Made by a program: the position numbers and the translations under genes
The notes under the pieces: generated by a model
Seen by the model: the letters and a program-made list of their open reading frames with translations, nothing else
Told to the model about the DNA's origin: nothing
Database searches by the model: none
Source of the DNA: a virus
Taxonomy: Duplodnaviria; Heunggongvirae; Uroviricota; Caudoviricetes
Length of the DNA stretch: 16,544 bases
Strand: one strand, 5' to 3'
IMG/VR virus record: IMGVR_UViG_2695420569_000027
Shown here: piece by piece, positions 9,999 through 16,544 of the stretch
Position numbering within the stretch: the stretch's first letter is position 1
Layout: each line of letters starts with the position of its first letter

Positions 9999-10409
9999 TC
10001 AGAACGGAATATCATCACCGTAAGGGTCATCGCCTCCCGCTGGTGGCTGATTACCCTGTGTGCCTGTGGTCTTGCGTCGGCTCCCACCAAGACGTGCCGC
10101 ACGGGCACTGATTACGCTGTCTGCAATAACCTGATAACCCTGCCGCGTTTCCCCGTTCTGTCCGGTCCACTGGCTGACCTGCATCGTGCCGGATACGCTG
10201 GCAACGTCGCCTTTTTGATGTTTAGCCAGGAAGTCGGCCTGCTTACCAAATGCGATGACCGATAGCCATAACGTCGCCTGTCCATCCTGTGCCTGGCTGC
10301 ATGGCAGCGATACCGCCATACGCGCCAGCGTCATCGGTGTACCCTTGCTGGTCTGTTTTACCTGCGGGTCGTCCACCAGCCGCCCGTAAGCTGCAATTTG
10401 TGCTGTCAT
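9999..10409 (-). CDS. ssb: Single-stranded DNA-binding protein
   Basis: 136 aa with an OB-fold-like N-terminus, a Gly/Pro-rich linker and the hallmark acidic tail ending DDIPF. GAGGTG lies 6 nt upstream of the ATG. Confidence 0.92.
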   Translation of the reverse strand: MTAQIAAYGRLVDDPQVKQTSKGTPMTLARMAVSLPCSQAQDGQATLWLSVIAFGKQADFLAKHQKGDVASVSGTMQVSQWTGQNGETRQGYQVIADSVISARAARLGGSRRKTTGTQGNQPPAGGDDPYGDDIPF

Positions 10410-10418
10410 ATTGCCACC

Positions 10419-10724
10419 TCAGTGAAGCGATCCGGCGTTGTTCTTTTTCATCTCTTCCATCATTTTTTCAGTGAGCATTACGCACTGAAAACCCATGTTT
10501 TTGATGTCTACGGGCTTCATGCCTTTATCAGTGGATATCACAGGCAGAATATCCTGATACACATCGCGGTCAGGGTAACTAAGCACACAAAGCGCCCATG
10601 ATGCCACGGGTGAGGATCCTTCGTCTGTTTCAACCCACCAGCCTGGTGTAGCTGCGCTTATTTGCTGAATCGTGATCCGTCCGTTGTGCTTGTAAAGTTT
10701 TTCACCAAATTTTGGTTCGCTCAT
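10419..10724 (-). CDS. Hypothetical protein (101 aa)
   Basis: ATG at 10724 with GGAGAG 8 nt upstream, overlapping the upstream stop (ATGA). No family recognised. Confidence 0.5.
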   Translation of the reverse strand: MSEPKFGEKLYKHNGRITIQQISAATPGWWVETDEGSSPVASWALCVLSYPDRDVYQDILPVISTDKGMKPVDIKNMGFQCVMLTEKMMEEMKKNNAGSLH

Positions 10725-10972
10725 GATTCCAACTCTCCGGTTTTAACGTTGATGGTTGTTACCTGTTCCGCTTCGGCAATCTCCCGTTCTGTCAGCGTGG
10801 CAAAGTTTGCCGCCGCCGTGGTCATGAATGCGCTTATCAGGTCGGGATGTTCCTTCGCGTATCCTTCCCGCGTGTGGCGGTCTATCGTTCTGATTGCCAC
10901 CTTTAAGGTGTGCTCAGTCATGTCTAACGCTTTATATTTTGGCTCTGTTCTGTCTCTGCGTTTTTGGGTCAT
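10721..10972 (-). CDS. Hypothetical protein (~83 aa)
   Basis: Start moved to the ATG at 10972 (GAGAGG upstream), because the track's GTG-initiated N-terminus is translated from the iteron repeats. Confidence 0.4.
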   Translation of the reverse strand: MTQKRRDRTEPKYKALDMTEHTLKVAIRTIDRHTREGYAKEHPDLISAFMTTAAANFATLTEREIAEAEQVTTINVKTGELES

Positions 10973-10984
10973 TTCTCGCAACCT

Positions 10985-11174
10985 CTCACTTTTTCGCCTC
11001 ACTTTTTCAAGCGTCTCACTTCGTCGCAGTTGGGATTTTCGGTTTTTCTATGTGTGTGTTTCATAAGTATTTTTTCACCCCTCACTTTTGAGGATGTATA
11101 CAGGTCGAAAAGTGAGGGGGAGCGGGCTAATTTTGGCCCTCTTTCTATCCCCCTCGCTTTTGCTCCTCACTTTT
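10985..11174. repeat. Iteron cluster (CTCACTTTT) flanking an AT-rich core: candidate replication origin
   Basis: CTCACTTTT at 10985, 10998, 11081 and 11166; variants at 11015 and 11153; an inverted copy (aaaagtgag) at 11108. An AT-rich tgtgtgtgtt tract lies between the clusters. The whole region is immediately 3' of the rep gene. Confidence 0.5.
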
Positions 11175-12573
11175 ATAGCGGCGCTACATCATCCCCATCG
11201 ATACGAATAACCCCATCTTTTTCCAGCTTGTACAGCCAGCGCCGGAAGTTTTTCATTTCATACCCCAGCTTTTTCATGTCATCACGTAACATCTGGATCG
11301 TGCACTTGTCGCCGTTCTGTGTGCGTGAACGGATGCACCCCCATAGCGCGGTATGGTTTTCCGTCTTGTTCCCTGCCTCCTCGATGCGCTCCAGTTCAAC
11401 AGGAGGGCGCGGATCATCCACCACCACCAGCGACGTGATTAATTCACCGTCAGCGTCGGTAAAAAGCTCCACCACGCGTAAGTCATATGCGGCTTCTTTG
11501 AGTTCCTCCGCGTCCTTCATTTTGGTGCATGAGATAACCAGCGCTTCGCTTCCTGCGTCCTCCCTGCGTATCCGGTATTCAGCATCCAGCGAAGCACGAA
11601 ATGCACTGGAACCGCGCGCGCCTTTCGTCTCATCCTTGCCGGAATGGTGAACCACCAGCACCGTGGCCCCTGTGCGTCGTTTCAGTTCGTCACAACCACG
11701 GATAAACGCCCCCATATCACGGGAATCATTTTCATCATTCCCACCAAAGCAACGCGCCAGCGTATCCAGAATAATCATGCGTACAGGTTTACCCGTTTCC
11801 CGCTCCACCTGACGGGCAGCGATAACCATTTCATCAACATCAAGCGGGGCAGCCGGAAAGATGGGGCGGTTTACCAGATACAGATTTTTCACCTGCTCAT
11901 CGTGCACAACCTCCCAGGCTTTTACACGACGCGGAACACCTATACCGCCTTCACCAACCACATAGAGAACCGCACCATGTGCAACCCTGCGGCCTCCCCA
12001 CTGGCGACCAGTGGCAACATGGCACGCCCACGATCCGGCAAGGAATGATTTATAGGACCCGCTAGCCCCGTATATGCTGCATAGCGATACCGCCGGAATA
12101 ATCCCCTTAACCACGTAATCCAGTTGCGTGTCGTATCCGGTAGATCCAACGCTCATCGGTAGCGTGGTTTTTCGCTGGTGGTTTTTTTCTTCCGCCGGCT
12201 CTTTCCCGCGCACCCGTTCCAGGTATTCGCGCCAGTTCTCCCGCATATGGCTGTGCATCCCTTCGGGGTAATAATTCGCATCAGTTACGCCCGCCGCCGC
12301 CAGCTTGTGCGCAATGGCATTAATATTTGATGGCCTGATGTGGCCTGCCTTGTACAGCCGGACACAATAGCGCCCCTCGTCGATGATTCTCAGGTCTGCC
12401 AGTTCATCCAGTTGATCATCAGCCAGCACAATGGGAGGCACATTATCGCCAGCCAGTCGCCCGTCCTGTTCCTGCCACTGTTTCGCATGTGCCCACGCAT
12501 CACTACCCGCAAAAATGATGACTTCGGTCATCTTGTCGTAAGGCTGTTTTTTTAAGTTCGGTGCGCTTTTCAT
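11173..12573 (-). CDS. Replication initiator with AAA_25 / RecA-like ATPase domain (PICI Rep-like)
   Basis: 466 aa with Walker A (GASGSYKSF), Walker B-like (MIILDTLARCF) and the HHSGKD motif typical of RepA/AAA_25 replication ATPases. Which satellite Rep subfamily it belongs to is not resolved. Confidence 0.8.
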   Translation of the reverse strand: MKSAPNLKKQPYDKMTEVIIFAGSDAWAHAKQWQEQDGRLAGDNVPPIVLADDQLDELADLRIIDEGRYCVRLYKAGHIRPSNINAIAHKLAAAGVTDANYYPEGMHSHMRENWREYLERVRGKEPAEEKNHQRKTTLPMSVGSTGYDTQLDYVVKGIIPAVSLCSIYGASGSYKSFLAGSWACHVATGRQWGGRRVAHGAVLYVVGEGGIGVPRRVKAWEVVHDEQVKNLYLVNRPIFPAAPLDVDEMVIAARQVERETGKPVRMIILDTLARCFGGNDENDSRDMGAFIRGCDELKRRTGATVLVVHHSGKDETKGARGSSAFRASLDAEYRIRREDAGSEALVISCTKMKDAEELKEAAYDLRVVELFTDADGELITSLVVVDDPRPPVELERIEEAGNKTENHTALWGCIRSRTQNGDKCTIQMLRDDMKKLGYEMKNFRRWLYKLEKDGVIRIDGDDVAPL

Positions 12574-12869
12574 TTCTTGCCCCTGAATCCGTTAACCATG
12601 GTTTTCAGCTTCTGGATGTTTGCCCGTGCCCTGGCGTTGCTGGTGGGCACGTTATGCGGCGCGGTCTGTACCAGAGAAAAATCACGCCGGAACTGATAAA
12701 CAGGCATCACGCAATCATATTCGTAACCTTCACGGCGGTAGGTTACGCGCCGTTCTTCCACGCCCTTAATCATTACCGTGCCGCCGTACTGGTCGCGGTA
12801 AATATCACCGCGCGTAAATTTAGGGTGAGTGTTGCCACTGGCAGTTAAGCCAGAATATTTAAGTTTCAT
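12570..12869 (-). CDS. Hypothetical protein (99 aa)
   Basis: Stop overlaps the rep start (ATGA); part of the tightly packed operon. Confidence 0.5.
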   Translation of the reverse strand: MKLKYSGLTASGNTHPKFTRGDIYRDQYGGTVMIKGVEERRVTYRREGYEYDCVMPVYQFRRDFSLVQTAPHNVPTSNARARANIQKLKTMVNGFRGKK

Positions 12870-15314: not shown

Positions 15315-16544
15315 TTATTTTCTTCTGGCTACTGGTAGCGTGGTTACGTTTTCATGTGTTCCCGCCAGTATCCCTAACCGCTCCGTCCACATATCCAGCG
15401 CATTGCGTTTCGCATCCAGATAACGGGAATGATTATAAACTCGCTGCATTCCTGGCATCTGGTGGCCTGTAAGCTGCTCCACGACATGCGGATCAACGCC
15501 TAAATCGTTCAGCATGGTTGTAAAGGTGCGCCGGATGTCATGCAGTGACCAGTGAGGGTGATTAAGCCTCCTGTGCGCTAATCTTCCATACTGCGATACG
15601 CTGGCCTCCTGTTTCACTTCCCCCAGCAATAAGCCCGTGTGCCTGTTCTGCTCCACCAGCTGCGTGATGAACGGCAGTATTGCTTCCGGTATAGGCCGGA
15701 ATATGGCTACCTTCGTTTTGCTGTGCTCCTTCGGAACGGTCCAGAGCATTTCGGTAAAATCCCACTCGCTGATCTCCGATAACCTCAGTTCTACCGTCCG
15801 GCATCCGAACACAATCAGGAGGCGGATTAACGCGATGTAGTAGGGGGAGAATATTTTTTTGTCCAGTGCCTGCAATAATTCGCCCAGTTCTTTGGTGCTT
15901 AAGACACGCTCGCTTATATCCGGTTTTTTCCCAACGTCCGCCACACTCATATCATCAAGAACGTTGCTGATTGCATAGCGCCGCCTCCGGCAGAACTTAA
16001 GCGCCTGTTTGCACGTCTGTAGCAAGAATCCGGCAGTAACAGGCGTTCGCTTTGCCACCTGGTCAAAACAGGCCAGCCAGTGCCGTAGCTCGCATTTATC
16101 CAGCGGCATAGCACCAATGTGCTGTATTACGTGATTATTAAGGCGCTTTTTCAGGGCGGCATAATCCACGCGGTTTTCCTTTGCGTACGACTCAAGCCAG
16201 TAGGTGAGCGCATCGCCAACCGTTACCGGCTTTAACGCTTCCTGTACGGTGTAATTAAGCTCATGACGTGGATTTTTCCCCTCTGCCAGCCATGCGCGAC
16301 ACTGGGCGGCTTTTTCCCTGGCTGATTTCAGGCTCAGATCAGGATAATTTCCCAGCTTAATGCGTTCCGGTGGTGCCCCCCTTCCCGTTCCGGCCCTGTA
16401 AGTGAAATACCAGGTTAAAAGGCCACTGGTTGAATGCCTGACGCTCAGGTTTCCACCGTCATTAAGAAAGGCTGTTTTTTGGGCGGGTGTGCCGTTGATT
16501 TTCCTCAGCTGTGTATCGCTCAGTTTGTTAAGTGCTCTGCTCAT
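15315..16544 (-). CDS. int: Tyrosine integrase, P4-type (N-terminal arm-binding domain)
   Basis: 409 aa; the start codon is the final three bases of the window. N-terminal arm-DNA-binding-like region (LSVRHSTSGLLTWYFTYR) and catalytic residues in the C-terminal half (HDIRRTF, then Y in VYNHSRYL). Confidence 0.93.
   Translation of the reverse strand: MSRALNKLSDTQLRKINGTPAQKTAFLNDGGNLSVRHSTSGLLTWYFTYRAGTGRGAPPERIKLGNYPDLSLKSAREKAAQCRAWLAEGKNPRHELNYTVQEALKPVTVGDALTYWLESYAKENRVDYAALKKRLNNHVIQHIGAMPLDKCELRHWLACFDQVAKRTPVTAGFLLQTCKQALKFCRRRRYAISNVLDDMSVADVGKKPDISERVLSTKELGELLQALDKKIFSPYYIALIRLLIVFGCRTVELRLSEISEWDFTEMLWTVPKEHSKTKVAIFRPIPEAILPFITQLVEQNRHTGLLLGEVKQEASVSQYGRLAHRRLNHPHWSLHDIRRTFTTMLNDLGVDPHVVEQLTGHQMPGMQRVYNHSRYLDAKRNALDMWTERLGILAGTHENVTTLPVARRK

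Follow-up and report, generated by a model that had tools for sequence, protein, structure and literature searches.

Nucleotides 10977-11175 of the window (the whole stretch of 16,544 nucleotides that was analysed) are very probably the origin from which a phage-inducible chromosomal island (PICI) of the capsid-forming kind (cf-PICI) replicates vegetatively, driven by the Rep protein of the island as had been proposed. Every in silico test run supports this probable satellite origin: the position of the repeats, their concerted change, their covariation with Rep, the exchange of the cassette among islands, and the occupation of the slot that holds the origin in EcCICFT073. Because the origin layout has already been described for such elements, the finding is correct but largely expected.

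The iteron array and the island around it

The repeat CTCACTTTT is seen five times as an exact copy in the window, four times directly and once inverted. All five copies are inside 10985-11174, and a search of the 16,544 bases found no exact copy outside this interval. The direct copies start at 10985, 10998, 11081, and 11166 on the plus strand, and the minus-strand copy is at 11108-11116. Two degenerate copies, CTCGCTTTT at 11153 with one mismatch and CTCACTTCG at 11015 with two mismatches, complete the array, in agreement with the original prediction of at least six copies, one inverted and some degenerate. In shuffled sequences, 3.65 matches with up to one mismatch are expected per whole window, or 0.042 per 190 nt, against six observed in 190 nt (Poisson P(>=6) = 7e-12). 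No second iteron cluster was found anywhere in the 16.5-kb window. The extended consensus of the iteron is the 10-mer CCTCACTTTT, which reads 5'-AAAAGTGAGG-3' on the rep-sense strand. Tandem iterons are spaced by 13 nt, and three 17-nt "anchor" copies are spaced by 83 and 85 nt.

The seven copies form three groups. Cluster B, the rep-distal one, is at 10985-11023 (plus strand) and consists of CTCACTTTT at 10985-10993 and 10998-11006 and CTCACTTCG at 11015-11023. The presumed unwinding region at 11030-11079, between cluster B and the inverted pair, is an AT-rich stretch, though moderately so (65-75% A+T), and its plus strand is rich in T. The central dyad at 11081-11116 is composed of CTCACTTTT at 11081-11089 and its inverted copy AAAAGTGAG at 11108-11116, placed around the palindrome TGTATACA at 11095-11102. 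Its arms reach 12 bp (11078-11119) as a 100% complementary inverted repeat, and as single-stranded DNA the dyad is predicted to form a hairpin of -11.8 kcal/mol (z -4.2). Cluster A, the rep-proximal one, is at 11153-11174 (plus strand), with CTCGCTTTT at 11153-11161 followed, at a spacing of 13 nt, by CTCACTTTT at 11166-11174. The one inverted copy is therefore half of a head-to-head pair across the TGTATACA core, and both outer clusters are oriented alike. The original prediction described two clusters around an AT-rich core. The AT-rich stretch does lie between groups of iterons, but there are three groups and not two. The array was also predicted to be directly downstream of the AAA_25 Rep gene, and the last copy of cluster A indeed shares 2 nt with the rep stop codon (11173-11175).

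The whole 200-bp gap from the rep stop codon to the next gene is occupied by the array, and the genes around it are all on the minus strand. The next gene (10721-10972, minus strand) encodes an 83-aa hypothetical protein matching phrog_1231 and is the outer boundary of the origin. Its start is ATG 10972 according to the RefSeq annotation of locus L001 described below. The homology break-points agree with this start: similarity to islands carrying other rep types resumes at ~10975. With ATG 10972 as the real start, all iterons are intergenic. The leftmost iterons had been described as overlapping the next ORF. This holds for the GTG-start ORF 10721-11002, which covers two of them, but the real start excludes them. 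The outermost iteron contains the probable Shine-Dalgarno sequence of the 83-aa gene, GAGAGG, which precedes ATG 10972 by 9 nt (window 10973-10995, minus strand). Binding by Rep could therefore be linked to expression of the operon downstream.

Scans of 10960-11200 for DnaA boxes, IHF and Fis sites, and GATC gave only one non-conserved DnaA-like site with one mismatch. As these scans were essentially empty, the array is not an origin of the DnaA/Dam type. Neither a sigma-70-like promoter in 10600-11500 nor a terminator on the gene strand of that region was found, and a reading of the array as transcription signals was dropped. Rfam searches with the array gave matches at chance level, far below gathering scores.

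The region 10700-12600 of the window matches E. coli FORC_042 (locus L001) at 99.7% identity. According to RefSeq, the island in that genome is located between phoQ and roxA. Its genes are, in order, an integrase, an HTH regulator, an Icd-like protein, small hypotheticals, DUF4222, and a "helicase RepA family protein", then the 200-bp gap, then 83-aa and 101-aa hypotheticals, SSB, PerC, the major capsid protein, HK97 prohead protease, portal, head closure, connector, HNH, TerS, and TerL. Besides AAA_25, Pfam confirms the SSB, PerC, DUF4222, and integrase domains in the window. Judged by this gene set, which matches that of cf-PICIs (bioRxiv 10.1101/2022.09.08.507074), the island is a cf-PICI integrated between phoQ and roxA. 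In the window, phoQ is at 593-2053 and the integrase gene at 15315-16544, its start codon coinciding with the end of the window. The phoQ/roxA site is the same attachment site as that of EcCICFT073. The island SSB gene is at 9999-10409 on the minus strand (Pfam SSB, E 4e-17), and its product is likely an accessory factor at the melted origin. An SSB gene is kept beside the rep-ori cassette in EcCICFT073, EcCIEDL933, and others. Cassettes with at least 80% query coverage are present in 551 of 5,426 complete genomes.

Conservation of the array and its covariation with Rep

The rep gene (11173-12573, minus strand) encodes a 466-aa initiator-helicase, matching Pfam AAA_25 (E 2.4e-43) and named "helicase RepA family protein" in RefSeq. 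Three parts of the protein can be told apart: residues ~1-130 are an N-terminal alpha/beta domain, residues ~148-390 the ATPase core, which has a RecA fold and is AAA_25/RepA-like, and residues 405-465 a C-terminal winged helix. The nearest solved structure of the core is RSF1010 RepA (PDB 1g8y), with a marginal E-value of 0.005. Foldseek relates the core to RadA/Rad51, KaiC, DnaB, and T7 gp4, which are generic RecA-fold matches obtained with a low-confidence full-length AlphaFold2 model (mean pLDDT 66 in the helicase core). No AAA+ SF3/SF6 core was found in Rep; Pfam, PDB, and Foldseek point to a RecA-like fold.

The C-terminal domain is confidently predicted to be a winged helix, based on an AlphaFold2 model of Rep residues 358-466 built with 30 homologues. 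The pLDDT is >90 at residues 405-465, with helices at 405-419, 426-435, and 443-452 and a beta hairpin at 456-465. This part of rep (residues 405-466, window 11176-11361, minus strand) encodes the predicted reader of the iterons. Its best PDB matches in Foldseek are mostly winged-helix nucleic-acid binders (probability 0.9-0.99), including HrcA, MotA, IclR-type PcaR, LexA-DNA, Fur, DtxR/IdeR, linker histone, and ORC/MCM winged helices, at an rmsd of 2-3 A over 60-77 columns and, for this small domain, with weak E-values (>= 0.04). Sequence searches of Pfam, NCBIfam, and PDB with Rep residues 1-139 and 365-466 revealed no significant family, the sole weak match being the MCM5_C winged helix (E 0.04). 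In the phage collection, only the helicase core was matched, and no full-length relative with the winged helix was found.

Residues 1-130 of Rep (window 12182-12573) show 77% DNA and 62-72% protein identity to the "DNA primase family"/DUF5906 Pri-Rep alleles of other islands, and the N-terminal ~130 residues match the start of PHROG 864 (DNA primase). AlphaFold2 predicts a small alpha/beta fold here (pLDDT 70-90), to which Foldseek gives no identity. Since most cross-species homologues align only from residue ~104-135 onward, this domain is mosaic.

Seven E. coli homologues, with Rep identities of 77-99.8%, have a ~200-bp gap after rep with the same arrangement. In two of them (L003 from O111:H8 and L006), every copy has CCCAC in place of CTCAC, which is a concerted change. 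Conservation sits in the repeats, while the spacers diverge with indels. The original prediction named a position of the repeats inside a conserved coding sequence in homologues as evidence against it. This is not the case, because the gap is unannotated across the seven E. coli homologues, apart from a 50-aa, probably spurious CDS in one of them.

A scan of Enterobacterales with one genome per species found 80 loci with Rep homologues of 50-72% identity, and in most of them, a repeat array comes straight after the rep stop codon. The iteron core is AAGTGAGG in Xenorhabdus, AAGTGGGG in Pectobacterium, Serratia, Morganella, Pantoea, and others, and AAGTGCGG in Kosakonia, Phytobacter, Enterobacter soli, and Citrobacter amalonaticus. 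Klebsiella is also among the array-bearing genera. The concerted variants across genera are of the form AAGTG-A/G/C-GG, with GTGGGG or GTGCGG outside E. coli.

The same geometry is seen in 62 of 85 Rep-homologue loci of Enterobacterales, where 62 is the number of regex matches, 59 of them having the 22/24-nt spacing; the other three (L004, L005, and L007) are false matches at the stop codon, and these loci do carry a dyad further downstream. In the remaining 23 loci, the pattern used did not recognise a dyad. The shared order is a direct cluster over the rep stop, an inverted pair 22-24 nt apart with a TGTATATAC core, an AT-rich stretch, and another direct cluster. In the 62 loci, the distance from the rep stop codon to the head-to-head pair is 42-68 nt, and the stop codon is at a median of 71 nt before the dyad centre. 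The 6-nt cores of the dyad are spaced by 22 nt in 53 loci and by 24 nt in the E. coli clade, with a TGTATATAC-like centre. Measured from the dyad centre, the equivalents of cluster A are at -69/-57/-48, the pair at -15/+15, and the equivalents of cluster B at +75 to +120. The A+T content is 95% at the dyad centre and 61-84% between +25 and +70. In these 62 loci, iteron cores are essentially restricted to the array, except for a few minor secondary positions and a reverse-oriented core in rep. The latter, seen in 13 of the 62 loci, has a fixed offset of ~105 nt from the dyad centre on the upstream side, which places it within the 3' end of rep.

Some loci are peculiar. Two have a tandem second origin-like array. 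In L009 (Xenorhabdus beddingii), the second array is ~225 nt past the first dyad and has G-type iterons (GTGGGG) beside an A-type (Asn442) Rep, so it is apparently an orphan origin of foreign specificity. In L007 (E. coli CFSAN018748), the extra array is of the same iteron type and lies in a 476-bp gap (1550-2025). CP018459.1 (L091), deposited as the Klebsiella pneumoniae "plasmid" pKp_Goe_795-4, is a circle of 16,971 bp. Its rep encodes a Rep homologue with the motif K-S-F and is followed by a GTGCGG array, and integrase, capsid, and terminase genes are present as well. The record resembles a cf-PICI-like island in its excised, circular form, and the homologous cassette that it carries lends indirect support to autonomous replication driven by rep-ori. 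The E. coli "plasmid" records NZ_CP031350.1 (187 kb) and CP061267.1 (171 kb) contain Reps 97-99% identical to that of the window, beside DUF4222.

Alignment of the seven E. coli Reps revealed a single column that splits the iteron types, with Asn442 accompanying CTCAC and His accompanying CCCAC. In these Reps, the column lies in the motif K-N/H-F-R-R-W-L. The codon of Asn442 is at 11248-11250 (minus strand), within the winged-helix part of rep, and in the predicted winged helix residue 442 caps the N-terminus of the third (recognition) helix. The variable iteron base and residue 442 correspond with no exceptions: A with Asn in 25/25, C with Ser in 7/7, and G with His or Lys in 41/41. Among 335 aligned C-terminal columns in 69 typed loci, only residue 442 fully determines the base, and its mutual information, 1.348 bits, equals the entropy of the base. 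A neighbour-joining tree built from the helicase core shows ~9 changes of the base and ~8 of the residue, occurring together, which corresponds to ~8-9 independent switches. The pairings of Asn with adenine and of Lys or His with guanine are classical side-chain/base pairings. The covariation is inflated by linkage, as the winged-helix domain and the iterons are within 300 bp, but linkage does not account for the perfection of only this one column. The predicted fold and this correspondence suggest that the winged helix of Rep may read the iterons, with residue 442 as the putative reader of the variable base.

Exchange of the replication cassette and comparison with known replicons

EcCIEDL933 (L088), the prototype cf-PICI (Alqurainy et al., bioRxiv 10.1101/2022.09.08.507074), resembles the island of the window in the packaging module, SSB/PerC, and the 83-aa gene, and differs in the replication cassette. 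Its identity to the window is 97% over portal, protease, and capsid, 93.6% over PerC/SSB, and 92.5% over the 83-aa gene. Similarity is absent over 10975-12433 and is back in the first ~46 rep codons and DUF4222. In place of the missing part, EcCIEDL933 has a DUF927 Rep (710 aa) and a 370-bp gap with 11 copies of TAACCCGCA. Two further alleles have a "DNA primase family" Rep followed by arrays of CTGTTCACC or CCTCTACC; CTGTTCACC is repeated eight times in the E. coli island allele L089. EcCICFT073 (L094) has a primase-family Pri-Rep and then a 288-bp gap with at least 10 CTGTCTACC/GGTAGAYA repeats. Among the compared islands (L088, L089, L090, and L094), the flanks are 83-97% identical, the Reps are unrelated, and each has its own iteron array, CTGTCTACC and CCTCTACC being among them. 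By these sequence comparisons, the origin together with rep codons ~47-466 is a sharply bounded exchangeable cassette. The boundaries of the cassette in the sister islands indicate that the iterons travel with rep and not with the downstream or packaging genes.

The original prediction compared the layout to that of SaPI-type satellites. The comparison is right, and it had already been extended to Gram-negative PICIs, whose rep-then-iteron origin was published by Fillol-Salom et al. 2018, ISME J (PMC6092414). There, the rep-ori segment of EcCICFT073 drives plasmid replication, mutation of rep abolishes it, and deletion of ori reduces it. Autonomous replication by rep-ori was shown only for EcCICFT073, SaPIbov1, SaPI1, and EfCIV583 (PMC6092414). 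The island of the window shares with EcCICFT073 the roxA/phoQ site and a backbone of int, HTH regulator, Icd-like protein, DUF4222, rep, gap, 83-85-aa gene, SSB, and PerC. The origin immediately 3' of rep, the short iteron sets around an AT-rich region, and the allelic rep-ori cassettes are also common to both. The cassettes themselves differ: EcCICFT073 has a 584-aa "DNA primase family" Pri-Rep, CTGTCTACC/GGTAGAYA repeats, and a 288-bp gap, while the window has CCTCACTTTT and a 466-aa RepA-family helicase without a recognisable primase domain. Of the two cassettes, that of EcCICFT073 is the experimentally tested one. The supplement of PMC6092414 gives four Pri-Rep accessions and no iteron sequences, the cf-PICI papers have no description of an origin, and among the papers searched, the iteron string occurs only in unrelated primers.

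SaPI Reps are SF3/SF6 helicases that load themselves, and with their C-terminal winged helix they read 6-12 iterons just downstream of rep; in SaPI origins, the melting region separates iterons of opposite direction (Qiao et al. 2022, PMC9371898). The window resembles SaPI origins in the short iterons right downstream of rep and the AT-rich centre (Ubeda et al.; PMC9371898), and its Rep resembles SaPI Reps in combining initiator and helicase in one protein with a C-terminal winged helix, here a predicted one. SaPI Reps are AAA+ SF3/SF6 helicases of 3'-5' polarity, whereas the Rep of the window has a RecA-fold AAA_25/RepA core, the fold of 5'-3' SF4 helicases. In contrast to the opposed iterons of SaPIs, the window has one inverted copy only, in a dyad of fixed 22-24-nt spacing. 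Because the outer clusters of the window share their orientation, the likeness in orientation is only partial.

RSF1010 and the IncQ plasmids are iteron-based replicons, and the RepA ATPase core (1g8y) is the nearest structure. IncQ plasmids divide the task between RepC, which binds the iterons, and RepA, which is a helicase only. Unlike in IncQ, the winged helix is fused to the helicase in the Rep of the window, and the similarity to RSF1010 RepA is marginal (E 0.005). Satellite phage P4 (alpha protein, ori/crr) is likewise a satellite replicon with a multifunctional protein binding short repeats. However, alpha is a primase with an SF3 helicase, and the P4 repeats are different and absent from the window. 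The octamer TGTTCACC within the CTGTTCACC repeats of L089 is what we take to be the P4 type I repeat. Classical iteron plasmids have a Rep_3/RepA initiator that is a WH1-WH2 non-helicase dimer, iterons of 17-22 bp usually upstream of rep, DnaA boxes, and Dam sites. Assignment to this class was rejected, as the window has a helicase-fusion initiator, iterons of ~10 bp downstream of rep, and no conserved DnaA, IHF, or GATC sites.

Interpretation and alternatives

The proposed origin would function as follows. Upon induction, Rep would be made, and its C-terminal winged helix would bind the 10-bp iterons AAAAGTGAGG, with Asn442 at the start of the recognition helix reading the variable seventh base. 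Rep bound to the two direct clusters and the head-to-head pair would distort the DNA, which may open at the TGTATACA core, at the adjacent AT-rich stretch, or at both. The RecA-fold, RepA-like helicase part of Rep could then load itself onto the single strands, by analogy, since the SaPI Reps in which self-loading was shown belong to a different helicase superfamily. The polarity of the helicase would presumably be 5'-3', as in helicases of the same fold. The island SSB would coat the strands, and host primase and polymerase would finish replication.

It is improbable that the repeats are instead Rep-binding sites for control, acting in copy number or incompatibility by titration or handcuffing or blocking read-through downstream, with the origin elsewhere. 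Plasmid iterons serve both initiation and control, and the covariation with Rep speaks to binding specificity and not to initiation. The overlap of the outermost iteron with the Shine-Dalgarno sequence of the next gene would also suit such a role. Against it, the full anatomy of an origin, that is a dyad, an AT-rich stretch, and two flanking clusters, is present at fixed spacing, the 16.5-kb window contains no second iteron cluster, and deleting the equivalent region of EcCICFT073 reduced the function of the replicon (PMC6092414).

Still less probable, indeed very unlikely, is that the repeats are operators of a transcription factor or a cos/pac site recognised by the island terminase. The array does precede the SSB-PerC-capsid-terminase operon, and terminase small subunits often recognise repeated motifs. 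Yet the capsid, portal, and protease genes of EcCIEDL933 are 97% identical to those of the window, and its gap is without these repeats. Conversely, the array goes with the RepA-type rep beside quite different downstream and packaging genes in L003, L004, L006, and L007. The repeats covary with Rep and not with the neighbouring genes, and the gene strand offers neither a sigma-70-like promoter nor a terminator. A derivation of the repeats from chance or low-complexity sequence, from coding sequence, or from a structured RNA has next to no probability, and the sequence comparisons already refute it. The repeats do overlap two ORFs, a mechanical one on the plus strand (10964-11650) and the GTG-extended 10721-11002, and one homologue has the annotated 50-aa CDS, but RefSeq leaves the gap unannotated in 6/7 homologues, and the repeats are conserved where the spacers accumulate indels. 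Chance is opposed by P ~7e-12, and RNA by Rfam matches far below gathering scores.

The reading of the array as a Rep-driven origin leaves the current picture of PICI replication unchanged. It locates the origin of an E. coli satellite that is very common, and it precisely delimits a minimal fragment (~10975-11180) with which vectors could be built or function tested. Three points go beyond the literature consulted: the three-part geometry fixed across Enterobacterales, the RecA-fold rather than AAA+ core, and the rule of one residue for one base. The comparative data turn this last point into a simple, testable specificity rule between Rep residue 442 and iteron base 7. The swapping of PICI rep-ori cassettes as units with sharp boundaries helps in annotating satellites and in considering the incompatibility of co-resident islands.

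It can be tentatively suggested, with somewhat more doubt than confidence, that these Reps constitute a distinct class of self-loading initiators, in which a RecA-fold (SF4-like, presumably 5'-3') helicase is joined to a winged helix and specificity is essentially set by one residue (Asn for A, His or Lys for G, and Ser for C at iteron position 7). If so, satellite replicons of this kind would be orthogonal by nature and could be re-programmed. The ways in which islands residing together avoid, or make use of, the Rep of one another would then be explained too, as the second origin of foreign specificity in Xenorhabdus beddingii (L009) may illustrate.
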